NCBI GenBank assembly: GCA_003990765.1
Contig: RBNJ01000133.1
Span: 1 to 39,847 of the forward strand
DNA from: Jimgerdemannia flammicorona
Lineage: Eukaryota
Direction: 5' to 3'
Length of the DNA stretch: 39,847 nt
Shown: positions 1-36,128 of the stretch, in pieces
Position numbering within the stretch: position 1 is the stretch's first letter
Layout: every line of letters starts with the position of its first letter
The notes under the pieces: model-generated
Told to the model about the DNA's origin: nothing
The model's input: the letters and a program-made list of their open reading frames with translations, nothing else
Database searches by the model: none
Program-made: the position numbers and the translations under genes

Positions 1-32
1 GAACCAACACATACGACAAGGCAAGAAGAACC

Positions 33-1034
33 ATGTGGTGGCCCAAGATGGAAGAAGACCTGTGCCAATTTGTCAAAGGGTGTGACAAGTGCCAAAAACA
101 GAAACAAGATCAGCAAGACCAGGCACCCGGGTCATCAAGAATTGAGCCTATCTCCTTCCACCACATCGCAATGGATATCATTGGGCCACTACCAGTAACA
201 CTATCAGGAAACCACTATATTATAGTTATTGTAGACCTCTTCACCAAATGGATAGAGGCAGGAGCATTACAAGAAGCCAATGTCCTCTCTATAGCCGACT
301 TCCTGCACCGAGAAATCATCTGCCGCTACAAGACACCAAAGCAAATCACAACAGACCACAGAACAGAATTTGTCCATAGATTCCATGAGATAATATATCA
401 GAAATATAAGATCCAGCACATCAAGACCACCGCGTACCACCCTCAAGAAAATGGACAGACAGAGATAACCAACAAGACCCTCAAGAACATCCTAGCAAAG
501 ATCTCAGAGACATATGAGAATTGGGATAACTATCTCCCAACTGCCCTCTCTGTCCTACGAGACATACAGTCACAGAGCACACATTTTACCCCAAGAGAGC
601 TGCTCTTCGGAGAAGAAGATTCTGATGGAACCTCAGCCACAAATCTAGACCTAACTTGGAGACGGGTCAATGCAGAAATCCGGAGACTACACCAAATCAG
701 GAAAAAGGCTGAAGATTACATCACCAAGTCACAAGTGCTGACAAGGAAGAATGCGGAAAAGAATCACAAGGCCCTAGAACCCATCCGAATTGGAGAAAAG
801 GTTCTACTGTATCAAAATATGGTAGAAGCCTTATGGTCACGAAAACTGGAGCCCAAATGGGAAGGACCCTTCTACATGCAAGATATCAAGGGAACTACCT
901 TCTGGCTTAGAAAAATCTCAGGGACCATACTGCCTACTACAGTACACAGGAACAGACTCAAGAAGTACCACGAACCTATACAAGAGAAGCAAAACGTGAT
1001 GACTGCCCATGAGGTTCTAGTCCACAAATCGTAA
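33..1034 (+). CDS. Retrotransposon integrase (end of HHCC zinc finger, DDE core, GPY/F motif); probably 5' partial
   Basis: WWPKM..CDKCQ, MDIIGPLP, VDLFTKW, ITTDHRTEF, YHPQENGQTE, KWEGPF; open for 333 aa. Confidence 0.95.
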   Translation: MWWPKMEEDLCQFVKGCDKCQKQKQDQQDQAPGSSRIEPISFHHIAMDIIGPLPVTLSGNHYIIVIVDLFTKWIEAGALQEANVLSIADFLHREIICRYKTPKQITTDHRTEFVHRFHEIIYQKYKIQHIKTTAYHPQENGQTEITNKTLKNILAKISETYENWDNYLPTALSVLRDIQSQSTHFTPRELLFGEEDSDGTSATNLDLTWRRVNAEIRRLHQIRKKAEDYITKSQVLTRKNAEKNHKALEPIRIGEKVLLYQNMVEALWSRKLEPKWEGPFYMQDIKGTTFWLRKISGTILPTTVHRNRLKKYHEPIQEKQNVMTAHEVLVHKS

Positions 1035-1502
1035 CAGCATGTCCCGTGACCAGCAGGCTATCTGTCTGGACCATTCTCTAAGGGATATGGTACTGGCAAC
1101 TACTCATCCATGAGACTTTCGCAGTCAGAGGAGTTCAAACCATCAACTGATTGGTCAAGATCAGAATCAGGCCCTTGCTCTATATGAAGGGAGCGACCCT
1201 TCACCATCACACCAAAATACAAAGGGAAGATGCCAGCCCATAAACACTAGTTTTTGACCCCTTGCCAGAGTTTATGGGATCAGCAAATTTTTCAGGACTG
1301 GACTAATGAATAAGGACACTCAGGAAGATCCTTATTCAGGAGGAAGATGTAACGGTGACCCCAGAATGATGACATCAGTACAGGAGACAGCCTTTCCTTG
1401 CAAGCCACCAGATCGAAGCACAAGAAGATCATATGGTATATGAGATGAGCAATGATGACCAACTGTGAGTCATTGTGACCACAGCACAAGCATCCTGAAG
1501 AA

Positions 1503-1510
1503 TATAAAAG
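1503..1510 (+). promoter_or_regulatory. Candidate internal TATA box for the LTR-embedded ORF
   Basis: TATAAAAG about 140 bp upstream of ATG 1652, conserved at 12525-12532 in LTR C. Confidence 0.5.
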
Positions 1511-1651
1511 AAGGATCAAGGAACCGCAGTAGCAGCAACCAACAAGAACCACCAATCCCAAAATAGCTCAAAGACTTACCACAAACGAAATGCCTGCGCC
1601 CGCCAAACCTCAAGATCAAGGAATCACCAAGGCACCTCGGTTGAAGAAAGG

Positions 1652-2404
1652 ATGTTCCAAGACATCAGAAGAGCTATGGAAACCCGCTCAAGAAGGACTC
1701 CTAGTGTCAACCTGGGTACTGCAGACCCCTATCACTTCATCCTCTACCGCCGTGAAATGGAAACAAGGATCACCATTGTCACCGAATACCTCCAAATATG
1801 GCAGGAGTATGAAATAGGAAACCTCCTCTGCCGGGAGTTCCCACAGGCCAGCACCCAAGAGCTACAAGATGCTACTCCCATGGATATACGTGAAACGAGG
1901 ACAGCTAAGAAGATCCATCAGATCTTCAGGCATGCACCATAGTCAATTCCCAACTTGGAGTATGTTAGAGTCTCAGATTTCAGAGACCTGTCATCTCGCC
2001 GCATCAATGCACTAGAAGCCAGGGTGGCTACAGAAGCCCAGTCCACTATCACCCTCAACAGTGAAGAAGTAGAAGACTTCTGGCACCCCATCCTTCAGGA
2101 CAACCCAGACCAATTCCTGCAAGGATTGATCTCAATATTCCAAGGCCCAAGCATCCAAGTTAGATCCCCCCAAGACCCCACATTTGTCTCCTATTTTGTG
2201 GAAGAGAACCTCATAGATTGGAGAGCTCCAAATCTTGTCCCCGATTTCCCCGCCGAATGTGATGACGTCATCGGCAATGACGTCATCCCGCGCAACATAC
2301 CCGAGGTACACGAGACGCACGACCTGCACGACAAATTCGCAGACCTCATCTCCTTCAGTGATGATGATGATGAAGCCCCCATGGTCCTGAACTTTCTGCT
2401 CTAA
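1652..2404 (+). pseudogene. LTR-embedded accessory ORF (about 250 aa, one premature stop), unknown function
   Basis: ORFs 1652-1942 and 1955-2404 share a frame. The TAG at 1940 is TGG in the C copy. Acidic C-terminus. Confidence 0.8.
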
Positions 2405-2410
2405 GTTCTT

Positions 2411-2575
2411 TGTTATACTGGATAATGCCAGCACCAGTATTCTCATGTAACACCAGATAATACCAGCACTGGTATTCTGAGGTGACGCGAAATTGTTCCA
2501 GCACCGGCATTTTGATGTAACACTGGATAATGCCAGCATCCTGAACCTGTACAACCAACAATACCAGCCCTGGAA
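2411..2575. repeat. Degenerate tandem repeat of about 34 bp (4-5 units) in U3 of LTR A
   Basis: Recurring TGTAACACYRGATAATRCCAGCACYRGYATT; internal palindrome AATACCAG-CA-CTGGTATT at 2459-2476. Confidence 0.8.
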
Positions 2576-2643
2576 CTTAGTAGTTTTAGTTATTGGAATT
2601 TATATTTAGCTCTATATCTTAGCAACCATTGAATTATATTTTG

Positions 2644-2676
2644 TATAAATACCCCTCTTATTTCCTCTAAAATAAA
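2644..2676 (+). promoter_or_regulatory. LTR TATA box and poly(A) signal
   Basis: TATAAATA 2644-2651 and AATAAA 2671-2676; same arrangement from 13687 in LTR C. Confidence 0.65.
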
Positions 2677-2881
2677 GTCAGTCAAGTTCAGTGCAATACA
2701 CAATCCCTTGCAAGCAATCTAAGAGATAACAAGACAGTTAAAGATAAGAAGTTTGAGGACTATAAGACCTTGAGAAGGCACTCCAATAAGAACTTGCTTA
2801 TAACAAACTTGAGTTAGTCTAAGAGATACACCTTGAAGAGAATCTGGCGTATTTGAAGGACTCAGCGACCACTACGTGACA

Positions 2882-4158
2882 CTATGTAGGACCTGAACAC
2901 CTGTGCTAGATCTGCATACCTGTACCAAACCAGTATACTTGCCATAAGTAGCAAATCTATAATTAGCCACATAGCAACCAGATAGCAACTACAATGTATA
3001 AAATACCCCAGAGACAAGAGTGAATAAATCTCAGTTCTGAAATATAAAGCAAAAGATAAGTCTGCCTACTATACTTTGAGAGATATACCTGCCAAAGCCA
3101 CTTGATCCAGGAAGGATTGCAATACTTAGGAGAAACACCTGCTCTATAGCTACTACTAGGAGATTGTGAGCTTTGCCCCTTTCCCACTCTGGTCTACTTT
3201 CCAATATAAAGATTGATTGATACACTTGCCAGACTAAGCCTGAAGAATCTGAGTTTGCCACCAAGTTCAAAAAAGAACTTTACTGCCTTTTGAGAAATCT
3301 GCTGCTTAAGGAATAAGTCACTATATCTTAATTCACTTGCTAGGTAAGCCTGAAGAAATCCACCACCTTTTGAGTTATTTACCACCTTTTGAAGAGAAAC
3401 CTACATTCTCAGAGAGCCTTAAGAAAACTTACCATAAGCCAGTCTTCTGATACAACTTTGCAGTAAAGTCAGTCTATGATGTAACCCTATGCAAATGAAG
3501 CCAGTCTTTGATATAACTTGCCAAGAATCTGCCACCAGTTATTATTCCCAGAGAACTCCACCATTTCAGAAAAAATCTGTATCATCTGAATAATTAGTTT
3601 ATTCCCAGTGAGCTGATTCAGAAGAATCTATGTCATCTACTATTCCCAGAAGAGTCCACCACCAGTACAATTTCTAGTAAACCAAATTAAGTTATCTGCC
3701 AAATTACCAGACTACCCTACATAAGGAACTCATTCCACTATACAAGACCATTACCCAGAAATCACATAAGGAATCTGCCACACTATATAAGAGATCATTG
3801 TGCTATACAGAGATTGTCATGCAGAAATCAGAGATCATCACTCAAAAAGAAAAACAGCTAAATTGCCAGACTATTATGCATAAGGAGATCATTATGCTAT
3901 ATATGAAATTCTACCAATTCCCAGTTAACCCAAGAAGGAAACCCATTCATAAATTGCTACTATATCCAGAGAACAGTTCTGATTAGAAAATCAACATACA
4001 ATTAATTACTGTATTCTGAATTTGACTATTATACTACTAAATACCAACAAGGACCTCAGGAATATTAGAACATTTTGTTACTTTTGACAAAGTAACTGGG
4101 GGCTTAAGCCAAACTATACCAACCCTCAATTTGTCTCTATTGAGCCAGGTACATTACA
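2882..4158 (+). repeat. 5' LTR of B (first ~130 bp displaced by insertion of A)
   Basis: Homologous to 26078-27448 and 31615-33003; ends CATTACA before the PBS. Confidence 0.85.
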
Positions 4159-4160
4159 TT

Positions 4161-4178
4161 TGGGGGCTCAACTGAGAA
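4161..4178 (+). promoter_or_regulatory. Primer binding site, tRNA-Pro-like
   Basis: TGGGGGCTCAACTGAGA two bases after the LTR end resembles the tRNA-Pro PBS TGGGGGCTCGTCCGGGA; E copy TGGGGACTCAACTGGGA at 27451. Confidence 0.75.
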
Positions 4179-4710
4179 GATTTCAAAATTGATATGACTT
4201 TTTAGCTCACAAGAACCCACAGTCAAACTGGATACATTTGATATAATACCAATTTCTGCCATCACAGGAGAACCAGTTATTACTAGCATTTGGACAGGAA
4301 GAGAAGTAATCACCTCAAGACTTGTCAACTACCCAGTATCAGAAGGATCCCAGCCAGAAACCAGTACAGCCTGAAATCCTCAACTAGAGCAACTAGACAA
4401 CACAGGTGGCCCTGCTGGAGATCTTAAAGAACTTGTACAAGAACTAGAAGATCTCATTACATAAGCCCAAGATCTTACAGCCAGACACCCCATACCAGTC
4501 CCACCAATCTCACCCATTGAACCTTTACCACTAGTCCTTGCAAAATTAGAAGTAGCTCCTACAAGAATACTTAGGCTCATTCCACATCATCCAAGGTCCA
4601 GAACATCATCCTCAAGATATCCAAGCACTCCTATCTCCAGTGACAGTTCAGAAAGTGAATCTGAATCAGAATCTGGACCAGAACCAGAATTAGAAGAAAG
4701 TGACAATGAA

Positions 4711-7704
4711 ATGGCCACCTTATTACCAACCTTTGCAGGATATCCAGAGAAAGATCCCAGAGAATTTCTTGATAGAATTGAAGGAATTGCAGCCCTGAGA
4801 GATCTCTCAGATAAAAGAAAAATCACCATCTATAAGGCCCTGCTTAGAGAACCAGCCAGAGGAATTTTTCACTGAAAGGTAAATGATCTGAATTCAGAAT
4901 TGGCAAGACAAATACAAGCAGCAGTATCTTATGAGCTGGAATATGTAGCTATAGTCCACTGGCTTATCAGAAAATATGCAGAAAATGAAACCCACTATAA
5001 GGCTCAAGAATCTATCATAGAGATGAAGATGAATCTTAGAGAATTATCCAGAGCCTTCTTCACAAGAATCCAAAAGAGAATGTATGCTACTGGGTTCAAT
5101 ACCACCAACCAGAATATTATAGGTCTAATGATCTTCATAAATGGGATTCCCCCAAACATTGCTCAGTATATCTGTACCCTAGACATCAGCAGGTCCAAAG
5201 AGCAAGTAGATGCAGCCCAAGGATTCTTTAATGTCAGACAAGAAACCACCTGAAGTGATTATAATAAGAAAGAAGACAAAGAAGACATCCTGGTCAAAGC
5301 CCTACAAGAACTCCTTCAAGGACAAGAGAGATCTAAAGAAAGAAGATCAGCCAAAGAAGAAAAGAAGGACAGGAGCAAAATCCAAGACCTTAGCTCCAAG
5401 TTGGACCAATTGGTTGGATAGATTGAAAAACTCACCATATATAAAAATCGGAGTTACCAAGACAACAGAGGATACCCACCACAGAGAAGCCAAGGTTATC
5501 CACCCAGAGATAACAGGAGCTATCAGTAGGAAGAAAGAAGGTACCCTGTCCAAGACAGAACCCAAGTCCAATACTTCTACTGTGAACAATTCAGACACTA
5601 TACCACTGAATGTGATAATAAAAGAAGTGACCAAAGAGACTCAGAACAACCAAACCAAAGGAATGACACTTAGTATAAGAAGACTGAAGCCCATCCTGTC
5701 AAAGACTTTGTAGAAGTAAGCAACAGTGAAGACTACAGTGACCTAAACCTGTATCCTACCAAGGTTACTACCTGGAAAACAGTCTATCTAGTAGAAAAAA
5801 GAAAGAGACCCATAGGAAGGCCATCCAGGAATATTAGCAGAAGAATTATCTAAGAAGAAGATAAAGAACATGAAGAGAAACAAGTAGAAACACCTCCCCA
5901 GACTCCTTCACCTTTTGTCCCCAAGATAAATGAGTTGTCACCAGCTGGAGTCCAAAACAAATTACTGAGGACCACCAGATCTAGCACTGGCTGAGTTCCA
6001 ATCCCACAGCAAGAGCCAGCTCCCATACCTATCTAGGCTGCAGAGAGATATGTCAGCACCTACTTACATAGAGACATTGGAGGACAAAAGGCAAAAATCC
6101 TCATAGACATAGGAGTAGCTGTCTGTATTATTGCTAAACAATTCCTGGACACCCTTCAATGGCCCATTGATGGACCATCCAACCTCAGCTTCATAGTGGC
6201 AGATGGAGCCCAAACTCAACCTCTTGGAGAAGTATGAAATATCACTATTTCTCTTAGACACATTCAGTTCTCCATTCTGAAAGCTATCATCAATGAAGCT
6301 GTCACCTATGACATGATCCTTGGTACCAACTGGAAGAAGGAAATGAATGCAGTTGTTGATATTGGACAACAAGTACTCAAGTTTGACTACTGAGACAATA
6401 AGTACCAAGTTAAGGTGACTAGCTATGAGCAATCAAAGAAGAAGAAGGCCATAATTTAGGAGGAATATACCAGCAGTGAAGAATTTACTATAGAAGAGGA
6501 AGATGAATCTGAAGATGGAAATGATCCCAGACTCAATCCCTGAATCAATCTAGTGAATGATAGACTAGAAGACAATATATGGACTAAGAATACTATCCTC
6601 ATTACCATTGGAGCCATTGCAGGAGAAATCAAAGGATGCCCCACTTGCCTCAAGAGACACAAGTACCCCAAGCACTCTTCCAAGATAGAAAATTACCTGG
6701 TACAGCCTGCCCAGAGTGCAAAAAGAAAATAAAGAAATGCAGACATATTTCAGAAATACCTGCAGCCGAAGCTACAGAGATACAAGCAATTTGGAGTCAA
6801 GAATTATCTGGGGAAGAAGAGGCACTTGACTAAGAAGTTTCTGAACAAGAAGTACCCAAAGAAGAAGTCCCTGAACTCATTCTCTGGGATGACCCTCACT
6901 GGATACCACCTGAAGATAATGACCCTTGGAATATAGAAGAAGGACCCAGTACAATCCCCATTATTCCCAAGAAAGAGACTCATTAAGAAAGGACTTTTAG
7001 GCTAGGAAGATGTCCACATCAAATGGTCTTCCACTCTTCCTGAGACTACTGCTATCAGTGCTATCTACTAGATCAATAGGAGAGATAGAGACCCCAGAGA
7101 CCAGAACTCTCAAATACAGTTGCACAGTCAACTATCTTTCAAGAAGTTACTACCAAGTTGCAAAGTCAATTCAGAGGACAAGGTCTCTTTACCTGAATAG
7201 AAGTATATTCCTTATCTACTCTTCTCCCAACTTATGATCAAGATGGGTACCAATTCCCAAGACAATAAGAAATCAATAACCAGGAACATCATTTCCAAGC
7301 AATGGGATATTATAATCATAAAAGATACCCAGACTGCTGAGACTACAGACATCAGAAGATTCACCTCAGTCATGATATTGCAATCCACACTTTGAAGAGA
7401 GGAGACAATAGAGGCCAGATTCGAAAAAGCCAGACCAAGAAACCAGAAAGAAGAATTCTCAAGATCTATGATTTAGGAGAAGACATCCTAGCTTTCATCA
7501 GACATGTGATCCACTAAGGATGGGTAGAGGATGCTACCAACTTCATGAAAGCCCTAGACCCTATAGGAAGAAGAGGAATCAACTATCTCCAAGATCCCTC
7601 TACTGGAGCCAGGTGGCCACACCTCAACCTCAGAGCCTGGAGGCTCTCTACTAGTAGAGCTTCAGCCCTAGGACAGTTCAAACTCAGTAAGGATATTGCC
7701 CAGT
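4711..7704 (+). pseudogene. B gag, zinc knuckle, aspartic protease and Cys/His-rich insert
   Basis: LPTFAGYPEKDPREF gag start; knuckle (C)FYCEQF(G)HY(A)TEC near 5572; LID(I)GVA near 6100; CPTCLKRHK and CPECKKK motifs; many stops. Confidence 0.85.
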
Positions 7705-8103
7705 ATGCCCTACTACATCCCAAGGCCAAACTTCTGACCAAAGTTTACCCAGAAGATATAGGATATGATCTTTATAGTCTGGAGGATGAATCCATCAAGC
7801 CTGGAAAAACATTCATGATCAGAATCAAACTAGCTATGCAGCTATCTCAAGGAGCTTACATCCAACTGACCTCAAGGTCTGGGCTTGCTAGACAAGAGAT
7901 AACCATAGAAGGAGGAACTATTGATCCAGGATATATAGGTGAAATCAAGGTCATCCTATACAACAGCAGTAAAGAATAGTACTAAATCATTAGAGGATAG
8001 AAGATTGCCCAAGCAGTCTTCATGAAGGCCAAGACCCCACAATTACAAGAAGCCTTCAAACTAACTGAAGGAATAAGACAAGCTGAAGGATTTGGAAGTT
8101 CAG
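7705..8103 (+). pseudogene. dUTPase domain of element B
   Basis: IGYDL, SRSGL, GGTIDPGYIGEIKV, KIAQ, RQAEGFGSS correspond to the five trimeric dUTPase motifs. Confidence 0.92.
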
Positions 8104-8559
8104 TTAAGAAGAAAGTATATCTTCTTCAAGTCAATCACCTCAAGAGGAATGCTCCCCAGCAAGTGTACTACCAATCAGTCAAACTGCATAAGAATCTCAT
8201 CCTGGAATCTGAAGAACAAACTACTTTCGAAATCTTTGCACCACCTGATCCCAGGAATCTTTTTTTTGAACCCAATGAAGATATCCCACACTTGGATATA
8301 GAAGGACATATATTTCCTGACAAGATGAACCCAGTGCACTCCTGAGCAACCAACCAAAGTTGAGAAACCATCATCTTGCCAAAAGGAATCATCATAGGAC
8401 ACCTGGTGCCTTTACTCAACTGAACTCATAGGGAAGTTTATGAACTAAACCTATCAGGAAACAGCAAAAGGTCCTAGAAGAAAGAAAAGGCCCCTCTGTG
8501 ATCCAGGAGACAGTAAAGCCTTCCACCAACATTGGAGAAGAATTGACATCCCAACAATA

Positions 8560-9925
8560 GCAACAACTAGTAGAACTCCTCAATAAATATCAAGATATCT
8601 TCACTACTGATTATGGCAACCTGCCATACAACCCATCATATCACCACAGTATAAATACAGAAAATGCAACATCTATCTGACAGAAACCCTATAGAATACT
8701 CTAATACTTAAAAATATTTGAAAAAGAGCACATTCAAGAACTCTTAGACAATGGAGTCATCCAACCTTCTACCAGTCCCTGGGCCAGTCCTATACTTATT
8801 GTACCAAAGAAAGAAGAATGAAGACTCTGTATAGATTACAGAAAACTCAATTCAGTCACTGAAAAGGATACCTATCCTTAGCCCAGAATTGATGATCTTT
8901 TGGATCAGTTATAAGACACCAGATACTTCAGCAGTATGGACCTTTTCACAGGATTTCATGAGATCCCCATGGACCTCAAGGACATTCAAAAGACAGCCTT
9001 CCTTGCTCTAGAAAAACTGTTTAAATACCTCTGAATTCTCTTTGGACTTTGCAATACACCCCCCACCTTTCAGAGGATGATGAATTCAGTCTATGCCCCC
9101 TTGATCCACTACTACTTGATTGTATATATGGATGATTCCAACATCTATTCAGCAAATTTTGAAGAACACTTATACTACCTAGAGGAATTCTTTAAGCTCA
9201 CCTGCAAGAACCATATGAGACTCAATGTAAAGAAATGCTACTTCAGGAAACAGAAACTTGAATTTCTTAGATTTATAGTTTCAAAAGAAGAAACCCATAC
9301 AGATCCAAAGAAAACTGAGAAGATCAACAATTGGCCAGTATCCAAGACCCCAAAGGAAACACTATCATTCCTGATGCTAGTATCCTACTACAGAAGATTT
9401 ATCAAGAACTTTACCCAAATTGCAGCCCCAATCCAAGTCCTTCTTAAGAAAGAAGTACCTTATAAATAGATGGAATCATAAGAGAAAGCCTTCAAAGAAC
9501 TCAAGAACTACATGACTACAGTACCAATCCTTGTACACCCCAATATACAGAAGCCATTCATCTTGTATACAGATACTTCCAAAGATGGCCTAGGAGCAGT
9601 TCTAGCTCAAGAAGGATCTGATCAATAATACTATATTATAGATTATACAAGCTGAGCTACCAATTAGCAGCAGATGAACTAAGGCAGCACCAAACTGGAA
9701 TGCCTTGAAGTTATATGAGCAGTCACCCTGTTAAAGCATTACCTCATTGAAGAAAGGTTCACCCTGACCACAGACCATACAGCTCTCAAATGGCTATTCA
9801 ATCATAAGAAATCTACTAGAATCCTAGCCTGATGGATCCTTATTCTTCAGGACTACAAAATCACCATCATCCACAAAGCAGGGAAAGCTTACAACAATAT
9901 TGATATACTTTCCTACCAGCCCTAA
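8560..9925 (+). pseudogene. Reverse transcriptase and RNase H of B
   Basis: SPWASPILIVPKK, CIDYRKLN, PFGLCN-like, VYMDDS, LYTDTSKDGLGAVL, TDHTALKWL. Confidence 0.92.
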
Positions 9926-10960
9926 TGAACTAGAAGAAGGGTGTCCCAAGGAACTACATCATAAAAGAAGCTCTCCAGATCATTAAGGCACAAGATCTTA
10001 TCCAAAAGAACATCAGAAAGCCCACCAAGGACAGGCAAATATAGAAGAGAAGTTGTGAACAATATACCAACATTGGCTCAACCTCAGAACACAAGTCCAG
10101 GACATACTCAAGAAATGTGACATCTGTCAGAAGTATCAAGGAAAGAAGAACTATCAAGCACTATTACAATCAATTATATCATCAGACAATATCTTTCAGA
10201 GATGGAGAGTAGACATAATTGGACCTCTACTAGTTATAATAAGAAGAAACAAGTACATTCTTATATTTGTAGAACATCTGACCAAATGGCCCAAGGCTTT
10301 CTCAATGGAAATTGCAGATACCTTAACTATTATAGGTCTTCTCTATAGACTCACACTCAGATATGGACCCCCAGAAGAACTTATCTCTAACTGAGGCACA
10401 GAATTCATTAACAATATAATTATAAGTTATGCCCAAATTCACAAGATCCACCTCAAACAGACTACATCATCTACCCTCAGACCAATGGTATTATAGAAAG
10501 AATGAACTAGACCATTAAGAAAGAACTTGCCCAAGTCAATCCTATTAATTGGGACCTTTGCTTACCTGAGATCCTATGGGAAATTTGGAACACCCCTGCT
10601 ATCTCTACTAAATAAAAGCCATTTAAAATGATATTTGCCAAGAAAACCAGAACTGCTGACCATGAGAATCTTGGAGACCTCCTCAAGAAGGCAGAATAGT
10701 TATGTAATCAGACCCAAGTTCAGATTACCAAAGTCCAAGAAAGACAAAAGAAGTACTATGACCAGAAATAGAAGGACCAGAAGATCAAAATTGGAGAGTA
10801 AGTACTAGTTTGGAGAAGTATGATTGAAACAAACTTCACTGCTAAATTGGAATCCAAATGGGAAGGATCTTATCTTGTGCATAATATCAGAGAAACCAGC
10901 ATCTATTTAAGAAGCATAGATGGATGAACCCTGAGGACACCAATATTCTCAAGATATACC
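9925..10960 (+). pseudogene. Integrase of B
   Basis: HQKAH..WLNL..CDICQK, VDIIGPL, VEHLTKWP, PQTNGIIERMN, KWEGSY. Confidence 0.88.
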
Positions 10961-10972
10961 TTTTTCTACATC

Positions 10973-11488
10973 ATGAATCAGAGAGTTGACAACTATCTTC
11001 AGACTCTTGTTCTCAGCTCATTTCAATCACTGCCAGTTCCCCTACCCCAATTCTAAGAAGTCATTGGGAATACTCTCCAGAAAATTCAGATTCATCAAGA
11101 GAATCTTATCCTAGCCAGATGATTGTAACAGATCTATCAACTTCAGGCCCACTATGTAATTGGAGAGCAATTGCAGAACCTCCCAGTCCCAGAACAAACA
11201 TATATCAGAAACACCACAGAACTATTAAGAATAGATGTCACTGCTGCAGACAGGCTCTACACTCTTTATAAACCTAACCCTGTAGCCTTATTATAAGTAT
11301 AATTCCCCTGGTGTGATGTATGAAGAATGAATCTGACCACCTACCTAAGCATCATCAATGCTGTTGAAATCCTATTTCCAGAAGAAGAAGAAGAACCCTT
11401 AGAATGGAGCAACTATGGTACAGACAACAAAGATGATGGAACATGTATTAGTGCAGAAAATGCTTACCCACACTGAGATGATGACTAA
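10973..11488 (+). pseudogene. 3' accessory ORF of B (172 codons), homologous to the LTR ORF of A/C
   Basis: Single frame from ATG to TAA with only transition-type internal stops; HYVIGEQL...AADRLYTLYKPNPVALL...CDV(R)RMN; acidic tail. Confidence 0.75.
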
Positions 11489-11528
11489 AGGATAGTCTGA
11501 GGACAGACCATCCTTTAGTGGGGGCTGA

Positions 11529-11675
11529 TGTGACAAACCAAAACATACCATCTGAATTATAACTTAGCCAGATAATGTGAACATATAGCATAGTAATCAG
11601 ACACAGCAACCATTGCTGTGGAAAACTGTATAAAAAACTACCAGATAAGGTATATCTGTACAGGACCTATATACC
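11529..11675 (+). repeat. Truncated 3' LTR of B
   Basis: TGTGACAAACCAAAACATACC matches the starts of the E LTRs; ends at a poly-T tract. Confidence 0.85.
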
Positions 11676-11790: not shown

Positions 11791-12354
11791 CTTGAGTGAA
11801 GAGTATTGTACAGATCATTTATCAATAGAAGGATAGAATAATTAAGTAGCTTACAGATTTATACTATAATATAGCTAATTAGTATATTTTTAAGAATATA
11901 GTTTCTAAGTATAAGATAAGGATTAATTTACTTAAAATAGATAGAAATTAGTGAAAATTATTAGTAAACTATATATTTTAGCAAACAGAATATCAAATTA
12001 TACTAATTTTTCAAATTATTTACATTATTTTTATATTATAACATCTGTATGAGGAATATATTAATTATTAAAATAATATGGATAAATTTGTTACAATATG
12101 TTCAGATATTAATACAAATAGATAAAGAATTATATAAAGTGTTAGAAAGATGATAGATAAATTAAAATAACATAACAATTATAATAAGTAAGTACAATTT
12201 AATGAGAATTAAATAAATATAAGATATATATATATATATATATTACGCTTATTAATATAATTTCAATTTATTTTATAATAGATACCAATAAATACTATAA
12301 TTAATATAGCTATCAATACATAGGTTCAATAAGATGATATCAAAGATTATATAG

Positions 12355-13971
12355 TGTAATAGTAATCTCAGAATGATGATATCATTATAGAAGATAGCCT
12401 TTTCTTATAAGCCACCAGATTAGAGTATAAGAAGATCATATGGCATGACTCACCCAAGCTATAAAATGAGTAACAATGACAAACTATAAGTCATGATAAC
12501 TACAAGATAGAAGATCTCAAGGAATATAAAAGAAGAACTAAGAAACTACAATAGCAGCAACTTAAATAAGACTCACAAAAATTCTGAAATAGTTCAAAAG
12601 ACTCACTATAAATAAAATATCTGCTGCTTATCAAACTGCAAGATCCAGAAACCACCAAGACTTCTCAGTCCAAGAAAGAATATTCTAAGATATCAGGAGA
12701 GTCATGAGGACCTATACCAGAAGGATTCCTAGTCTCAATCTGATACTGGTGACTCTTACCACTTTACTCTCTACTACTATGAAATGGAGACAAGGATTAC
12801 TACTCTTACCAAATATTTCTAGATATAATAAGAATATGAAATAGGAAATCTCCTCTATCAAGAATTCTCTCAGACCAGTCTCCAAGAGATATAAGATGAC
12901 ACTTCTATAGATATATACAAATTAAGAGTAGCTAAAAAGATCTATCAGATCTTCAGACATACATCTTGGTCAATTCTCAACTTAGAGTATACCAGAGTCT
13001 CAGACTTTAAGGAGTTATCAGTCTATTGTACAGACACACTAGAGGCTATGGTGGCCACAGAAGCCTAATCTATTATCACTCTCAAAAGTAATGAGATAGA
13101 AGAGTTCTGGAATCCCATCCTTTAAGACAATTCAGATCAATTCCTACAAGAATTGATCTTAGTATTCTAAGACCCCAGTATTCAGGTCAAACTCTCTTAA
13201 GATCCCACCTTTGTTCTCTACTTTGTGGAGAAAAATATCATAGATTAGAGAGCCCCCAATCTCCTTCCTACTGCTATTGAATATAATAACATCACTAGTA
13301 ATGATATCACTCTACTAATTGACATATGCAAAATATATGAAATAAATGAAATACTTACAGAAATTTTTACTGACCTTATTTCCTTCAAAGACATCCTGTT
13401 TCTGATCTCTAGTTTTGATGATAGTAATGAAGACAAAGCCTCCAGGATTTTGAACATTCTGCTCTAATTTATTTATATAACTATTTGTTTAAATACTTGA
13501 ATATTCTGATATTCTGACTTCATATAACTATCAGAAATTATTTTAACATTTTGATCTTATATAATCAATTATACAGGCACTTGAATTTATACCTATAATC
13601 TGAAGTTTTCTGTATTCAAATATCTTATTTGGTTATTGAATTTTATATTTAGCTTTGTATCTTAATAATTATTGAATTATATTTTGTATAAATACCCCTC
13701 TTAGTTCTTCAAAATAAAGTCAGTATTAAAACACTCAAGCATTTAAGTACTCAACTACTCAAGAGTATAAGAGTTCTAGTCCTCTACTCAATTCTATACA
13801 AGTAAATCAAGGAGTTAATAGAGCAGTTTAAAGATAAGAAGTTTGAAGACTATAAGACCTTGGGAAGGCACTCTAATAGAACTTGCTTATAAGAAGCATA
13901 TAGTTGGTCTAAGAGATATACCTTGAAGAGAATCTGATATACTTGGAGAACTTAATACTCTCCACATGATA
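12355..13971 (+). repeat. 5' LTR of C (about 1.6 kb)
   Basis: TGTAAT...CATGATA, colinear with 1348-2881, followed by ACTTGGTACCTATTGGCTGG (PBS; tRNA not assigned). Confidence 0.88.
12680..13467 (+). pseudogene. Decayed copy of the LTR-embedded accessory ORF
   Basis: EYEIGNLL, AKKIYQIFRHTSWSILNLEY, SDFKELS, EEFWNPIL and terminal LNILL* align to 1652-2404. Confidence 0.8.
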
Positions 13972-16170
13972 ACTTGGTACCTATTGGCTGGTGATACTAT
14001 TAGAATTTCTTACTTTCAAGCTGAATAATAAACAACTACCACAATAACTACCCTGACTATAAGAGTCACCCTCTATAAGAATTCAAAATAAGATAGAAAT
14101 ACATTCCTCTACATTTAATAGATTTACTACTGAAGAGTCAATCCTGACCTTTATTGAAGACTTTGAACAATTTGTCACTATACAAGCTCTCAATATTGAA
14201 GTATAATTGGCTCTCCTATCTGTCAACCTCAGAGGATCTACCAGAGACAAGTTCAATACAGTTACTATTACTGACAATAGTGCAGTCAAACTCACCAATA
14301 TAAAGAATATCTTCAGAACTATATACTATATTAAAGAGATCAAGCAAGCTCTCAAAGATCAACTTAACACTATCTACCAAGGACTCAATAAAGACCCCAA
14401 CTCATTCTATACTCAAATCTGTCACCAGATTGTCTTGGCTGACTATGATGATGCTCCCAAAGAACAGATAGCTGATTCAATCTTTCTAAAAGAAGTCTAC
14501 CTTGAAATCATCCTAGCAAACCAGTCTATCCCAGCTACTCTGACTCTTGACCAGAAAGTGGTCTTTGTATAGAGATATTAGATCATCAGATACTCTGCTA
14601 AATACTCAATAGAAAGGATAACTGGCATCAAGATAGAGTCACTAAAGCCAATCAGTATCATACCCACTATAGCTCTTAACAGACAACCATCTCTATCTAT
14701 CTCCAAGATAGCTAAAGCTGACCTAGTGGAGGAACTCATCCAGCAGTTTGTCAAGATGACTGCACACCTTGGTGTCATTGTTAGAGAAGTATAAAGTGCC
14801 AACAAGAGACTAGTATAGAGGTTTGCAGCTACTACAGAGGAATATACTATTATATACTTCAAATGTAGAGAAGAAGGCCACTATGTAAAGAATTGTATGA
14901 CCAAAACAAGATATAGAGCCCAACTAAGTAATGTTACCAAAACTAGAGAACAAACCAATACAGTAGTCATTGAGGAGATTGGTAATGCTGATGATGAAGA
15001 ATATTATGAGAAGTCTAAATTCTGTCCTGTTACTGAAGATACCAGAACCCAGTCTAAGCTCTATGACAAGAAGGACAATAGTAAGCTGATTAGAAGATCA
15101 AAAAAGATCCCAATCATCACTATTCAAAGTAAGACCCAACTTGAGAAGATTGATTAAGACATGGAGTTAGATGAAGCTACCCACCAAATTATTGAAAGTA
15201 TATACTACTCTAGTCTCAGGAGAAAGTAAAAGCAAGAAAGAACAGAAGCTGTATAAGATCAAGATCTACTAGTATGATATCTACAAAGATCTCAAGAAAT
15301 AGAAGGTCAATACTAATTTGGACAACTAGCAGAAGTCTCTGCCTTCAGATAGCAGTTAAAAGCAAGACTTACAACTACTTTCAAGAACCAAGAGTATAAG
15401 TTCATAAAAGCTCACAATATATAAGAAGATGAATAAGAAGACCAAGATAAAGAATCTGAAGATCAGTGCAAGACCTCAGCCAATATCTAATGTCAGATTG
15501 AAGATTGTATCTTTGATGCTATCATTGATACTGGTGCTAGAGAATATCTTATAAACAAGAAGACAATTGACTACCTAGGCTGGGATATTGAAGAATCTAT
15601 CAAAATAGTCTATATTATAGCAGATGGTACATGAGTTACCCTCCTAGACAAGATCAGAGGAGCTATCATTCTAGTAGATATGATCATTACAAGTGCTACC
15701 AACTATGATATTCTCATTAATAATTAATGGCTTCACAAGGTCAAGGCTATCATTGACCTCAATGTTCAGAAGATATAGATCAACTATAGAGGAAGAAAGA
15801 TATGGATCTCTATCAATGTCTACAAAGAAGTACTACCAGATATGGAGGAAAGAGATGAAGAGGATACAGAAGTCTTCATATACTTGGTGTACAAGAACAA
15901 GAGTAAGACAACCAAGCTCACAGATGAGCAGTAGTACAATAAGATCATTGATAGCTATGCCTCTCAAGGAAAATGCCCCCATAGTGCCAGGATATACTAC
16001 TCTGATATCTAAATGACTGCTGGTCCTATATCAGTGAAGTCAGAAAAATCCATCAACAAAGATATGAGCAAGAAGCAGCCAGGGCAGAAAAAGAAGCCAA
16101 AAAAGATGATTAGCCCCTAGAGCTTCAAGCTGATAGTAATGATGAGGAGGAACAAAAATCAGACATTACT

Positions 16171-16581
16171 CTCAAGGTTAAGAAGTTTTACCCCAAAGTC
16201 AAGATCTCAAAATACAAGACTAAAGAAGCTGTAGGAATGAATCTTGCCAGCATCCAAGATGCTATCCTTGAACCACAAACCACTACTCTACTTAGTACTA
16301 AAATTTGAGTCAAGTTATCAGAGAACTATACTGAAATTATCAAGACCAGGAGCAGTCTAGCTAAGAGTGAAATCTCAGTTAAAAAAGGAGTCATTAACTC
16401 TGATTATACTGGTGAGATCTTCCTTATAGTCAGGAATTACAACTCCACCACTCCATTTGAAGTTAAGAAGTATGACAGGATTGGCCAGATACTGATCCAC
16501 AAAGTCAAGAAGCCTAAGATCACTGAAGCCATTAAACTCATCAAGACTAAGAGAGAAGAACAAGGCTTTGGATCTATTGGA
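16171..16581 (+). pseudogene. dUTPase domain of element C
   Basis: AVGMNL, TRSSLA, GVINSDYTGEI, DRIGQ, REEQGFGSIG. Confidence 0.88.
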
Positions 16582-16690
16582 AGAGGAGCCTATACTGCTA
16601 CCAAGATTACCAAACTCAAGCATAAGAAAGACAAGGACCAGAACAAGTATACATAGACCATTAGAGAAAATATTCCCCTAAAAGAATAAC

Positions 16691-18640: not shown

Positions 18641-19048
18641 TCTATATAATTAATAAATATATTTAATAGTAAAAATAATAATAATTCTTATATATATAGT
18701 ATTCTCTTATTATAGTAATTCAATTAGTAATCAGTATATAAAAAAGAAATAAATTGATAATCTATTATTATCTATTAAAGTTAGTAGATATATATATGCA
18801 AAGTCTATATAAGTATAAGACCCAAGTAAGTAATAGTACTGAATCTATTTGAGTATTGACAAGTAATAATATAAAAGCTCTTAATATAATTTATTAAATA
18901 AAAGATACAATTAGAGCTAGATAATATGTAAATAGTTTTATTTATTTACTTAATATTAGTCAAAAATATATTATTATTAATATATTATAGTGTATTTATA
19001 TATTTATATTTCTTTATCTATTATATAAAGATAAAGTATTGCAGATAT

Positions 19049-19538
19049 TGTTATAGTTGATTTGAATTAGTAATATGAATCAGAGGAATTAGACATTTGA
19101 TTGTGGTATCTGAACCCAATTCTCAATATAGTATAATCTTATAAATAGTAGTCATTTCACAAATATTGAAGTTTTCATAAATGTTAAACTCTTCACAAAT
19201 ATTAAGAATTTATAGATGTTAAAGTTTTGATGATTATCAAAGATTTAACAGATGTCAAGGATTAAATATTTGTGAAAAGTAACTCATAATATAGTTATAA
19301 CTTAGCCACCTTATAGCTAGCAAACTTATATAAATAACTCAGTATCTTAGAGTAAATAAACCTCAGATTGAAATAGTTTAAAGTAAAGAGAAAGCAAAGG
19401 AACTAGTAAGTCTGTGGGCAGATACACTTCAAACTCACTCCTCTATACCCTGAGGACTCTGTGAAAGTCAGAACAAGTCAAGTTTTTAAGATACAAATAT
19501 CCATCATACTTCTGAGGTTAGGCATCTGCTATGTTATA
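19049..19538 (+). repeat. 5' LTR of D (490 bp)
   Basis: Direct repeat of 25193-25634; TGTTAT...GTTATA. Confidence 0.9.
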
Positions 19539-19619
19539 ACTTGGTGTCTATTGGCTGATAATTTAAGATGAATCTCTCACTTTTAAGCTAAACAATAAAT
19601 AATCACTACTATCTGAACA

Positions 19620-22600
19620 ACTATATAAATTTAATCAAGACATCCAGACAAGATAGATATAAGACCACCAGTATTCTATAGATATATCTCAGATAAATCA
19701 ATCATTACCTTTATTGATGATTTTGAGCAATATGCTACTGTAAGGACCCTGACAGAAATACAGCAAGTAGCCCTCCTGCTCTTCAGTCTCCAAGGACCAG
19801 CAAGAGCAGTATTAATAGCTGTAATATATGTGGAAATAATGACAATATAGTGCTAGCAGTACAGAAGACCTGGCTCTGAGCCACCTACTATATATATAGA
19901 TGAGATTAAGCAAGCTCTAAAGGATCAGCTCAATACAACTTACTAAGAAATAAGTGAGGATCTAAATACATTCTACACCAGAACCTGATATCAGATAATC
20001 CTTACAGATTATGCTGCTACTATTTAAGACCAAGTAGCCAAGACAACCTTTATAAAAGGAGTTTACTCAGAGATAGCCCTAGCTATCTGCTCATTATCAA
20101 TAGTCCTAGATTTATCACAAAAAGTCACCTATGCCCAGTAATACTAGATAGTTAGACATCTACAAGACAATATAATGGAAAGAGTTACCAGAGTTAGAAT
20201 TGAAGCATCCAAGATAACTAGTGTGATCTCTACCACAGTGATCAATTGAAATACACCTCAGTCAAGAGCTACTGAGCAGTAGAGGAATAGTGACTCCATA
20301 GAGGAACTTGTCAAGAAGTTTGCCAAAATGATAGCCCACCTAGGAGATATAGTAATGGAAATTAGAGAAAGAGATCACTGCTCAGTTCAGAAGTCTGCTA
20401 ATACTACAGACAAGAAGAGAGATATCTGCTACACTTGTGGAGAAGAAGACTACTACTTATATAAATATATGAGTGAAACTAAGCACAAGGTCCAGCCAAG
20501 CAATGTTACTCAAAATAAGGAATAGGTCAATACCATTATCTTCAAAGAGATTGGAGAATCAGATAAAAAAGAATAAAAAGCCTACTCTGCCAAGACTATC
20601 AAGAAAGATGTCCACAAACAACCCTATAAGAGACCACCAGAGAGACCCAAGAAGAACTCTATGGAAAAGTAGATGGAGACTGCTATATAAAGTCAAGGTG
20701 AAGAAATGAATCAAGATATGGAGCTAGAACAAGCTGTTCAAGATATCATTCAAGGAACCACTCTAGTCAGTAAAAGAGAAAAGAAGAAAAAGCTTCACAA
20801 AACCAAGACCTTTAAGTATGATATCTTCAAGGACCTCAGTCAACAAAAGATCAATACAACCTTTGGCCAGCTAGCAGAAATACCCACATTCAGACAACAA
20901 ATGAGATATGGACTTGCTGAGACAACTAAGAAGCAAGATTAGAAGATAACTGAGACCAATAATATTCAAGAAGACTCAGAAGAAGAGAGCAAAGATAATC
21001 ACAAGACCTCTGCTTATATAATCTGTCAGATTGAAGATAGAATCTTCAAAGCCATTATTGATACAAGAGTAGAAAGATGTCTCCTCAGCAAGAAAGCAGT
21101 AGACCACCTAGGTTGGAAAGTTGAAGAAGCAACTAAATTGATATTTGTCACAGTAGACAGCATAAAAGCCACACTTCTAGGAAAGATCTGAGATGTTTCC
21201 ATCAAGTTTGGAGAAGCAACCATCCCAGTAGATGTGATTATGACCAATGCTATTAATGATGATATCCTCATCAGCAATCAGTGGCTTCACAAAGTCAAGA
21301 CAATAATTGATCTGAATGCTCAGAAGATACAAATCATATACTGAGGTCAGAAGATGTGAATTCCCATCAATATCAATAAAGAAGTACTGCCTAAAATAGT
21401 GGAAGAAGAAAGTGAGCAAGAAGAAGCCTATATGGTGACTACTAAGAAAAAGAAGAAGAAAATCAGATAGATTAGTGAAGAAGACTGGTGCAAGAAGATT
21501 GCAGAAGGATATACACCACAAGAAGTCTGTCTCTATGAAATCAAGATATACTGTAGTGAGCATATTAATGGCTGCTACCAATATAGCATTGGCATCAGAA
21601 AGATCTACCAGAAAAGAAGACAGAAGGTTCTTAAAAAACAGACAAGAGAAGAGGAGAAGAAGGAAGAGAATGATGAACCACTAGCCCTTCTGGAGGACAG
21701 TGATAATGAAGAAGAAATTAAGGTTAAGATTGGAGAATCCACCCTAATGTAGTTCTACCAGAATATAAGTCAGAAAATATAGCTAGAATGGATATTTATA
21801 GTAGAATAAACCATACTGGAGCCCCAGACAACCACCCTACTTGTAACTGGTCTGGAGATGATCATTCCAAAGAACCATATCAGAATCCTTAAGACAAGAA
21901 GCAGTCTGGCTAAAAGTGAAATCACAATTTAAGGAGAAGTCATTAATTTAGATTATATTGGAGAAATACTACTTATTACTAGGAACCACTATCCTATGAT
22001 TCTATTTCCAATCAAGAAGAAGAACTAACTGGCATAGATGTTGATCTTCTCAGTTCTTCAGCCAAGGATCATGGAAGTCAAAAAGTTAGAGGAAATAAAA
22101 AGAGGAAAGAAAGGATTCAGATCCATAAGAAGAGGAGTATTTGCTAGTACCAAGATTACTGAACTGGATTACAAGAAGGAGGAAACTATGAACAAGCATA
22201 GCTACACTATTGGAAATGAATTCCCACTTAAGAAGGAACTCAAGAAGATACTCTATGAATTTGAGAATGTCCTAGCCACAGATTTCAAGGATATCAAAGA
22301 AAAGACCCCACACTATCATGATATAGATATAGGAGACACTAACCAATCTACCAAAAAGCAAGACCAATACTGCCAGCCTGCTGCAAATGGCTCAGAGAAG
22401 AAATCATGCAGATAGAAGAAGCTAGTATATATCATTAAAGAAGCTAGCAGCCCCTGGGCTTCACTAGTTGTACTAGTTCTGAAAAAAGAAAGCAAGCTAA
22501 GAGAATTTGCCCCAAGACTCTGTACTAATTACAGAAAGCTCAACTTGGTTACTAAGAAAGATTACCAACCATTACCCCTCATCAGTGACATCCTTATAAC

Positions 22601-23625
22601 CTTGAGAGATAAAGTACAGTACTACAGCACCTTGGACTTATACTCAGAATTCTATCACTGAAGCAGTAAGTAAAAAGTCAGCTTTCATCACTCCAGATAG
22701 AACCTATGTCTACCTGTGAATACTATTTGGAATGTGCAATACACTAGTAAGCTTCCAGCAAATGATGAACAAAATCTTCTACTATGACATGGAAAGATAG
22801 ATGATAGTCTATATGGATGATGTAATCATCTACAGCAAGACATCTGAGGAATATCTGCACTATATCTAGTAGATAATAGAGAAGCTAAAACAGTATGGTC
22901 TTTACATTAAGCCCAAGAAGTGCAAGTTTGCAGAAATTGAGATCATCTATCTTGGTCATATCATCAATTGAGATAAAATATACACAGACTCCCTCAAGAT
23001 TCAAGCAGTAGCAGTATACCTAAGACCCACTATAGTTACTGAAGCCCAAGCCTTTATGGGACTTATCTCTTACTATCAAAGATTTATCAGAGGATTCTCC
23101 AATATAGCAAGCCCAATCTACAAACTCAACAAAAAGAATATTAAGTTTCAATAGACTGGCAGGTAACAAAAAACATTCAATAAGCTTAAGGTCAGACTGA
23201 CCCAGATATCCATCCTCAGAAGACCTAATTGGACTCAAGAATTCATCCTGCAGATAGATATAAGTACTGAAGAACTAGAAGCAGTTCTGGCCCAAAATAA
23301 AGATAAAATAGAATATGTCATTATATACCTAAGCTGAGAAACCAGAGAAGCTGAAAAAGAATATAAATTCTACAAGTTAGAATACCTGGCAGTCATCTGG
23401 GCTGTAGAGAAGTTCCACTACTATCTGGCAAGAAGACACTTCACCATTTAGACAGACCACTCAGCCCTTACTTAGCTACTGACCACCAGACAATCCAACG
23501 AAATCTATATCAGATAGATCATAAAGTTGTAAGCCTATGATGTAACCAACATATACTACTTAGAAAAAACTAATGTCAATGTAGATACCCTCTCATGGAC
23601 ACCCTGAAGGACCCCCAACTGGTAA
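19620..23625 (+). pseudogene. D gag-PR-dUTPase-RT-RNase H
   Basis: ICYTCGEE knuckle near 20424; AIIDTR near 21051; dUTPase about 21720-22131 (TRSSLA, GVINLDYIGEI, KKGFRS); SPWASLVV, VYMDDV near 22807; TDHSAL. Confidence 0.88.
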
Positions 23626-23632
23626 ACCAATT

Positions 23633-24700
23633 ATAAATAGGAAGCTCTACTATGGAATCATCACCTATCTGAGACAGTAAAATATGCTCTAATATCTGAA
23701 AGAATGGACATAAAGTGATGGAGAAATATTGAAAAAAAGAAAGCTACTAGTAATATCTGAATACAAAAAGGAAGAAGATATCAGATAATTCATCAAAACC
23801 TATAACAAATATCAAAAATAGAAACAAGACAAATGAAACTAAACCCTGGAATCAGTATACATAGAATCAGTACCCTTTGCTCATATAGTAATAAATGTAA
23901 TTAGCCCACTACCTCTGATATTGACCAGCAACTGATATATTATTATTATTGTAGATCTCTTTACAAAATAGATAGAGGCAGGATCCCTTAAAGAAGTCAA
24001 TGTATAGTAAATTGTCAATTTCTTCTATAAAGAAATCATCTGCTGATTCAAGATTCCAATGTAAGTAACTATAGACAAAGAAATAGAATTCATGAACCAG
24101 TTCTTTGAGGTTCTCTATAAGAAGTATAAGATTCAGCATATTCAGACCACAGCCTATCACTCTCAAAGAAATGGACAAGCAGAAAGGACCAATAAGACTC
24201 TTAAGAATATTATTGCCAAGATCTGTGATAACTATAAAAATTGAGACCATTATCTATTAATAGCATTATCTACTCTCTGGAATATTTAATTATAAAGTAT
24301 CCATTTTACCCCTAGAGAAATGCTATTTGGAGAAGAAAGTTCTTAAGAAATCCTATCATCTATTAGAGATACCATATGGAAACACATGGACACAAAGATA
24401 CAGAGACTACACCAAATCAGATAAAAGGCTGAGAATTACATAAAAAAGGCATAGACACTATAATAGAATAATGCAGAGAAAATTTACAAGCCTGTAGAGA
24501 TTATCAAGATAGGAGATAAAGTCCTGGTATATCAGAATATAGTAGAAGCTTTATGGTTATAAAAACTGAAGCCTAAATGGGAAAAACCTTACCTTGTACA
24601 AGATATAAAAGAAACTACCTTTTGGCTACAAAAACTCTCAGATACAATCATCCCCACTACTATTCACTAAAACTGACTCAAGAAGTACTATAGCTAATCA
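23633..24700 (+). pseudogene. Integrase of D, homologous to A integrase
   Basis: IVDLFTK, TTAYHSQRNGQAERTNKTLKNI, KLKPKWE. Confidence 0.88.
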
Positions 24701-24749
24701 ACAAAGTACTACTTTAGCCCTCAATATTACCAGTACTATACAGTAAGCT

Positions 24750-25151: not shown

Positions 25152-25192
25152 ATAGGATGTTTTAGAGACAAATCATCTATTTAGGAGAAAGT

Positions 25193-36098: not shown

Positions 36099-36128
36099 AG
36101 AAAGCTTGATAACACAACATTCTTTATT

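Follow-up and report, generated by a model that had tools for sequence, protein, structure and literature searches.

Long terminal repeats (LTRs) of retrotransposons are regarded as control regions that encode no protein, and both annotation pipelines and age estimates take their evolution to be neutral. The layouts closest to the one described here come from retroviruses. Mouse mammary tumour virus (MMTV) carries sag, the open reading frame (ORF) of a superantigen, in the unique 3′ region (U3) of its LTR. The nef gene of the human and simian immunodeficiency viruses (HIV and SIV) overlaps U3 of the 3′ LTR and starts outside the LTR; both MMTV sag and HIV/SIV nef are expressed from spliced RNA. 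In foamy viruses, tas/bet have an internal promoter within env, and the bel frames extend into the 3′ U3. That LTR retrotransposons can contain accessory ORFs is well established, and those of bdelloid rotifers reportedly carry extra ORFs. In the accessible part of the literature, gene23 of Grande is an accessory gene in the 3′ internal region that is transcribed from its own promoter (PMC7264820), and CERV of Cer1 is an accessory gene belonging neither to gag nor to pol (PMC10309623). Here, we analysed a stretch of 39,847 nucleotides (the window) from Jimgerdemannia flammicorona, i.e. positions 1 to 39,847 of contig RBNJ01000133.1 in assembly GCA_003990765.1. Positions 1348-2881 of the window are probably the LTR of a dUTPase-bearing Ty3/gypsy-type retrotransposon whose long U3 holds an accessory gene under selection.

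With MMTV sag, the window shares a whole ORF of ~250-320 codons in the U3 of an LTR of 1.3-1.5 kb, upstream of the main TATA and duplicated in each provirus. It differs in that the sequences are unrelated (no match to a Pfam family at E ≤ 1), in its host element, which is of Ty3/gypsy type with no env seen, in the TATA motif directly before the ORF and in the acidic character of the protein. Foamy-virus tas would be matched by a candidate second promoter for a putative regulatory gene on the 3′ side; the LTR is likewise long, and the acidic tail would be compatible with a transactivator. In contrast to the foamy accessory frame, which overlaps U3 only with its end and with which no homology was found, both the promoter motif and the whole ORF of the window lie inside the LTR. 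As in HIV and SIV nef, accessory coding sequence and U3 share the same DNA, but in the window a stop codon within the LTR bounds the ORF frame on its upstream side. The additional ORFs of LTR retrotransposons are likewise accessory genes distinct from gag and pol, some of them nuclear and one with its own promoter. As far as the accessible sources go, they are located internally, either ahead of gag or in the interval from pol to the 3′ LTR, whereas the ORF described here is part of the repeat. In the accessible text of the review PMC7264820, none of the phrases 'within the LTR', 'inside the LTR' and 'in the LTR' is present. A whole gene borne in U3 is a layout known from a few retroviruses; our literature search on ORFs within retrotransposon LTRs found no description of one, subscription journals and supplements being outside its scope, so that this is no proof of absence.

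The window consists of nested LTR retrotransposons of Ty3/gypsy type on the + strand, as judged from self-comparison, a Pfam map and tblastx. Two of them, elements A and C, contain a copy of the LTR in question, and the coordinates of the relevant features are compiled in Table 1. Copy A matches 12355-13262 and 13628-13952 with an identity of 71.5%, which rises to 92-97% when C/T and G/A are merged. The homology starts exactly at TGTAAC in copy A and TGTAAT in copy C and ends with CA (TA in copy C), and the flanks beyond these borders are unalignable. Upstream of copy A there are an integrase region and a purine tract, upstream of copy C unrelated DNA. Downstream, copy A is followed by unrelated DNA that continues into the LTR of element B, and copy C by ACT+TGGTACCTATTGG from 13972, then by a weak CCHC knuckle and a dUTPase domain. 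The zf-CCHC match is indeed weak (E 0.0036; 17.8 bits, below the curated cut-off of 20.8) and the copy decayed. No tRNA gene was found in the window, and no tRNA matching the TGG-starting site downstream of copy C was identified.

Public sequencing runs that match the window are almost exclusively soil metagenomes. Four of them are referred to here as X1, X2, X7 and X18; X1 matches the stretch best, and X1 and X2 are from soil. Contig loose ends behind position 2881 (six in X1, one in X2) read the LTR-to-internal junction of copy C. The first letters agree in 22 of 24 places, and both differences are transitions. In X18, contigs reach 1348 and 2881 with different flanks. Among the contig pieces listed, none with 31 letters on each side bridges the junction between polypurine tract and LTR at 1347/1348. 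Taken together, the flanks of copies A and C and the metagenome junctions indicate that the unit serves as both a 3′ and a 5′ LTR. As the gene sits inside the LTR, every complete element would carry it twice. A third copy, i.e. the 3′ LTR of element C, was found in the window neither by blastn nor with a purine/pyrimidine alphabet, and thus no single element in the window shows the ORF in both LTRs.

Copy C has suffered heavily. C>T or G>A changes in this copy, through which it has lost G+C, account for 284 of the 504 differences between the two copies and occur in all contexts, which identifies it as a copy decayed by deamination. The decay is strongest at CpG (54 of 72 sites) and affects CpA, CpC and CpT as well. 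It is thus more like deamination of methylated cytosines; classic repeat-induced point mutation was rejected as the process, since CpA, CpC and CpT are affected besides CpG.

Two TATA motifs structure the LTR. The upstream one, an 11-mer (GAATATAAAAG) containing the canonical TATAAAAG at 1503, stands ahead of the ORF. It is present again in copy C and forms the very beginning of contig L001, a diverged metagenome relative of 1345 nt with an intact frame of 323 codons. DNA similarity between copy A and L001 is limited to the ORF (L001 51-707 versus 1571-2224, 70%), the neighbouring non-coding DNA being unalignable. The distance between upstream TATA and ATG amounts to 87 nt in copy A and 65 nt in L001. 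The leader at 1511-1589 is free of ATGs, whereas 1348-1510 contains seven of them. Further downstream, L001 repeats the order found in copy A, i.e. TATA motif, ORF, TATA and AATAAA. The spacing between the start of the second TATA and AATAAA is 27 nt in copy A and 26 nt in copy C, L001 and element B. A module GTATAAA(A)TACCCC + AATAAA was observed at 2644-2676, 2997-3028, 13687-13718 and L001 1218-1249, in LTRs of three lineages that are otherwise unalignable. In element B, this module (TATA at 2997) lies ~115 nt into the part of the LTR that is present, with more than 1 kb of LTR downstream. As it is shared with L001 and with element B, which lacks the ORF, the downstream TATA most likely acts as the genomic promoter of the lineage with a very short R. 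Copy A would then be divided into U3 (~1348-2674), a short R from ~2675 and U5 up to 2881, and the 35-nt tandem repeat ahead of the main TATA may be enhancer-like.

The ORF lies wholly inside the LTR, because its frame is closed upstream by a TAA (1505-1507) within the TATA motif and ends with the TAA at 2402-2404, 240 nt before the main TATA. In copy A, an in-frame TAG at 1940-1942 splits it into 96 and 153 codons. Other copies read a sense codon at this site (450 of 471 depth units in X1, 41 of 41 in X2, 62 of 75 in X7 and 835 of 835 in X18), and the homologous proteins have W there, so that the stop is private to copy A. The upstream ATG at 1590, with A at −3, is out of the ORF frame in copy A and opens an overlapping frame of 75 codons. 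An extra letter behind 1597 joins the two frames in all of the depth of X2 and X18 and in 16.6 of 50.9 depth units of X7. The short form from Met 1652 seems typical of the window's sub-lineage, and the 89% identical protein P0003 is likewise called from this Met. Neither relatives of the ORF nor a shared long frame was found in the LTRs of elements B and D. The ORF together with the upstream TATA is apparently an addition to U3 in this family. Its origin as a gag duplicate was considered and discarded, as no match between the ORF profile and the gag and pol pieces of the window was found.

The original prediction, made from the sequence alone, had taken 1348-2881 for an LTR with a 250-codon gene in U3. 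The LTR is borne out by its TG/CA-bounded homology to copy C, by polypurine tract and integrase before copy A and by the TGG site after copy C. The ORF was placed correctly, wholly inside U3 and upstream of the main TATA and AATAAA, but it is not open in copy A. Its predicted recurrence in the 5′ LTR of element C was recovered by tblastn, with many stops in the translation. The predicted second conserved TATA motif is present in both copies and extends to L001. The claim that each element has two copies of the gene holds in so far as the unit is used as 3′ and 5′ LTR, not in the sense that one element of the window displays both. The breakage of copy A, i.e. the TAG and the frame break behind ATG 1590, had been missed.

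Several findings support the ORF as a real protein-coding accessory gene under purifying selection. Between copy A and L001, 214 aligned codons (57.5% amino-acid identity) differ at 70, 47 and 100 first, second and third codon positions, respectively. The NG86 method yielded rates of 0.31 for nonsynonymous (dN) and 1.61 for synonymous (dS) substitution, and thus a ratio omega of 0.19 with a bootstrap range of 0.085-0.296 (293 of 300 replicates usable); LWL85 gave 0.29. In two shifted frames of the same alignment, omega was 1.09 and 1.66. This comparison with one diverged relative supports the view of the original prediction that the ORF evolves as a protein-coding gene. Its remark that differences between copies A and C other than decay transitions tend to be conservative (EEVEDFWHPIL/NEIEEFWNPIL and DFRDL/DFKEL in the translations) is supported as well, as these differences fall 14, 9 and 33 times on codon positions 1, 2 and 3 (33 of 56 in third position). 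Among the 25 ORF variant sites listed, with 203 further variant places beyond them, 13 are in third position and 12 synonymous, which is a weak hint.

Homologues of the encoded protein were found in environmental sequences. A word-indexed protein search returned 7 homologues at E ≤ 0.01 among 162 candidates. Exhaustive profile searching of 1.84 billion representatives gave 5 proteins at E ≤ 0.001, all of them lacking Pfam domains and any longer architecture, and a second profile search gave 4 more distant homologues, two of them new. Including cluster members, the family comprises ~28 sequences of 89-342 amino acids (aa), which without exception come from environmental contigs of JGI or ENA. 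The homologues represent four lineages with 28-89% identity to family member P0004, and intact frames of 247-342 codons are present in these four diverged lineages. They have blocks such as W-x-EYEIG, HQIFRH-P, WNP-L-DNPDQ and FQGPP in common, and three of the four lineages share a C-terminal P-x-x-LNF-x-L. According to these comparisons, the gene is probably 250-271 codons long in the lineage of the window and up to 342 in relatives. The scan for relatives in metagenomes yielded L001 as the only locus; none was found in viral_contigs and genome_contigs. In protein P0032, replacements relative to its close relative P0031 are largely R to C, H or W. As P0032 thus bears a trace of CpG-type decay, part of the environmental 'proteins' assigned to the family were called from copies in decay.

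How the gene might be expressed is suggested by the layout of the LTR. Transcription from the upstream TATAAAAG would begin near 1535 and yield an mRNA in which the ORF follows a leader free of ATGs. The transcript would terminate at the sole AATAAA (2671), 27 nt behind the main TATA (2644) of the genomic RNA. Such a unit of ~1.15 kb would allow expression of the gene from both LTRs of an element and from solo LTRs. We give about an even chance to the idea that the LTR is a self-contained transcription unit reaching from the upstream TATA start to the shared AATAAA. Contigs of very high word depth cover 1339-2878 in X18, a small run only guessed to be RNA, while 800-1338 are barely covered; nothing was drawn from contig depth. 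Likewise, the summed depth of X1 is ~2.8-fold higher in LTR bins than in internal bins, from which nothing was concluded because contig depth cannot rank parts.

The protein itself is of mixed charge. In five of the six members profiled, the net charge per 20 residues runs from +2 to +6 at the N-terminus and from −4 to −8 in the tail; the exception is P0032 (175 aa), in which both the basic N-terminus and the acidic tail are missing. The tail is studded with hydrophobic residues and ends in the conserved LNF-L motif, and structure models suggest a helical core. Such a protein may, tentatively, be a nuclear regulator of the element's expression, either as a transactivator of the downstream promoter or as a Rev-like RNA factor. 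A role in counteracting host silencing appears less likely. That each LTR is a complete mobile gene, with TATA promoter, leader and ORF of its own and the single poly(A) signal of the LTR, encoding a new nuclear trans-regulator of the family's main LTR promoter or RNA, following the logic of Tas, Tax or Rev with unrelated sequence, we regard as unlikely. If true, solo LTRs would remain live gene copies, hundreds of expression cassettes feeding an activator to full elements, and a 'complex' regulatory circuit of retroviral style would have arisen independently in a Ty3/gypsy retrotransposon.

A number of observations weigh against an intact, independently transcribed U3 gene with a regulatory function. 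Both ORF copies of the window are dead, copy A through its stop and frame break and copy C through decay. The LTRs of elements B, D and E are without the ORF, so the gene is dispensable for such elements in general. That the unit occurs at both ends of an element is deduced by combining elements A and C with the contigs rather than from a single complete element. The homologues are gene calls on short environmental contigs (that of P0029 is 4848 nt long), and their context was read for L001 alone. In X1, the long frame from ATG 1590 is found in only 9.4 of 222 depth units. Most copies of the sub-lineage thus have the overlapping 75-codon frame from this ATG before the ORF, which would hamper translation from an upstream-TATA transcript. 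The survival of the upstream TATA in the decayed copy C says little, because the motif consists of A and T only. Among the public runs listed as matching the stretch, none is on record as RNA. As to the protein, no Pfam family was obtained at E ≤ 1 for six family members and no match to PDB sequences at E ≤ 10. Fold searches remained at noise level (Foldseek best E 0.77, VIA-align best Z 4.4) with weak input models, and the best score in the ESM Atlas was 0.83, below threshold. The mean predicted local distance difference test (pLDDT) of the first AlphaFold model was 35, which is weak. In a second run, the best model had a mean pLDDT of 58.4, with helical blocks up to 92, and the other four 40-46. 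With no family, solved relative or fold match, the putative function is read from composition.

Some of these points would suit a U3 gene that lacks a promoter of its own and is translated, like MMTV sag and HIV nef, from an RNA that derives from the genomic transcript by splicing or is otherwise subgenomic, the upstream TATA being an enhancer element or incidental. As is established for retroelements, every genomic RNA includes the U3 of the 3′ LTR, and the out-of-frame ATG 1590 in most X1 copies of the sub-lineage agrees with this explanation. Although it is the main alternative, we find it rather doubtful. The 11-mer with its canonical TATAAAAG has been kept in L001, where flanking non-coding DNA is unalignable, and has a TATA-ATG spacing of 65-87 nt with an ATG-free leader. 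Moreover, RNA that includes 1348-1510 would be burdened by seven ATGs. Conservation of the upstream TATA motif would also allow it to be the genomic-RNA promoter, with the ORF as first cistron in a very long R (~1535-2690). Against this stands the module of TATA and AATAAA, which is shared at a spacing of 26-27 nt with L001 and with the LTR of element B, where no ORF is present. In addition, an R of 1.1 kb with the poly(A) signal far from the cap would presumably end most transcripts within the 5′ LTR, an objection based on what is known of poly(A) occlusion in retroviruses. A long R is therefore very improbable.

The gene could also owe its coding signal to a host. LTR elements can acquire host sequence, as described in the accessible part of PMC6431247, and a low dN/dS might date from a host gene before capture or reflect a host paralogue, the ORF being a mere passenger of the LTR. 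Such a capture is improbable, given that the profile search of 1.84 billion representatives revealed just 5 proteins, without Pfam domain or longer architecture. Furthermore, L001, the sole relative with its DNA read, is again flanked by the LTR promoter/terminator module, and dN/dS was measured between two LTR-borne copies. The stop in copy A, the many stops in copy C and the lack of a recognised domain might even suggest that there is no gene at all, but a chance frame in a long U3 or an internal 3′ ORF within misjudged repeat borders. This is scarcely credible in view of an omega of 0.19 compared to ~1.1-1.7 in the shifted frames and of intact frames of 247-342 codons in four diverged lineages. 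Misjudged borders are also at odds with the ORF of copy C, which lies upstream of the TGG site and has an unrelated upstream flank, and with the LTR-end-to-internal junction repeated in metagenome contigs.

If the LTR of elements A and C indeed carries a selected U3 gene, LTR divergence is no neutral clock for this family. The gene dose would be two per element, with one more for each solo LTR, and the accessory function may outlive the element. Provided that the upstream TATA is active, the LTR would be a minimal mobile gene with a two-promoter circuit hitherto tied to complex retroviruses, and the origin of retroviral accessory genes would become testable in a simpler system. The encoded protein family has no recognised domain and is so far found only in environmental data, mostly from soil.

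Table 1. Coordinates of the LTR copies, the LTR-borne ORF and associated features in the window.
Feature	Position	Strand	Basis or remark
Element A pol, C-terminal part, integrase	3..1031	+	Pfam rve E 1.5e-10, Integrase_H2C2 E 4.5e-9
Polypurine tract AGGAGGAAGA	1338..1347	+	Directly upstream of the 3′ LTR; A/C homology begins at the next base
LTR of element A (3′ LTR; copy A), TG...CA	1348..2881	+	A/C homology, flanks, contig ends
Upstream TATA motif GAATATAAAAG, candidate LTR-gene promoter	1500..1510	+	2 matches in the window, 0.09 expected
Upstream ATG	1590..1592	+	Matches start (MPAAR...) of long homologues of 271-342 aa
LTR-borne ORF, 250 codons + stop	1652..2404	+	Interrupted by TAG 1940-1942 in copy A
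35-nt tandem repeat, 3.4 copies	2421..2538	+	Tandem Repeats Finder score 124; between ORF stop and main TATA
Main TATA motif TGTATAAATACCCCTC (TATA at 2644)	2642..2657	+	Two matches in the window
Sole AATAAA of LTR copy A	2671..2676	+	27 nt after TATA start
LTR of element C (5′ LTR; copy C), heavily transition-decayed	12355..13971	+	Homology to copy A
Upstream TATA motif GAATATAAAAG in copy C	12522..12532	+	Exact match
Decayed ORF copy in element C	12617..13464	+	tblastn with P0004: 12617-12733, 12745-13464, E 2e-82
Main TATA motif TGTATAAATACCCCTC in copy C; AATAAA at 13713	13685..13700	+	Exact match
Primer-binding-like site, TGG start	13975..13991	+	3 nt past the LTR end of copy C
Element C gag remnant, CCHC knuckle (weak)	14819..15154	+	Pfam zf-CCHC; tblastx to element B gag
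Element C dUTPase domain	16309..16653	+	Pfam dUTPase E 1.1e-16

The remaining elements of the window illustrate the type of retrotransposon involved. The order of RT (reverse transcriptase) and integrase is unreadable in elements A and C, as the window does not extend to the RT of element A, and element C is incomplete. In element B, RT (9035-9466) precedes integrase (10059-10391) in the Pfam map. A protein search with the integrase of element A gave matches of at most 36% identity throughout. Domains of dUTPase were recorded by Pfam at 7518-7976, 16309-16653 and 30823-31458, and by tblastx at 21792-21986. Of the nested gypsy-type elements, at least three and probably four thus contain the domain. 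According to the accessible parts of two reports, dUTPase is located between the protease (PR) and RT in gypsy elements of fungi (Phanerochaete, Postia, Tuber Tmt1), rotifers and planarians, and no LTR-borne gene is mentioned there for these elements (PMC2864245, PMC6431247). In a similar arrangement, the dUTPase of elements B, C and D is positioned downstream of gag/PR.

Element B spans 2882-11600. Element D (26078-33003) is bounded by LTRs at 26078-27448 and 31615-33003, which are 87% identical to each other. It aligns to element B from 3870 to 8038 (gag to dUTPase) and then skips to 11432-11598. Without RT, RNase H and an integrase part, it is an internally deleted relative of element B and looks like a non-autonomous derivative that has retained gag, PR and dUTPase. 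The alignment between the LTRs of B and D begins only at D 26317 (B 2939). Hence, ~240 nt of the B LTR start are missing at 2882, the end of element A, and element A seems to have inserted into the 5′ LTR of element B. Element E is represented by pol remnants at 19710-24688 with a DNA identity of 65-68% to pol of A and C. Its repeats at 19048-19539 and 25192-25635 are short, unrelated and too small for the ORF.

The last part of the window differs from the rest. Positions 34001-39847 contain RVT_1 reverse-transcriptase pieces at 37740-38480, with no further domain found there; this is a different, unclassified retroelement. Its G+C content is 50-53%, with a strong excess of G over C on the + strand (skew +0.45 to +0.49). 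Low values of 28-29% G+C were recorded at 12001-14000, 24001-26000 and 32001-34000, compared to ~40-46% elsewhere.

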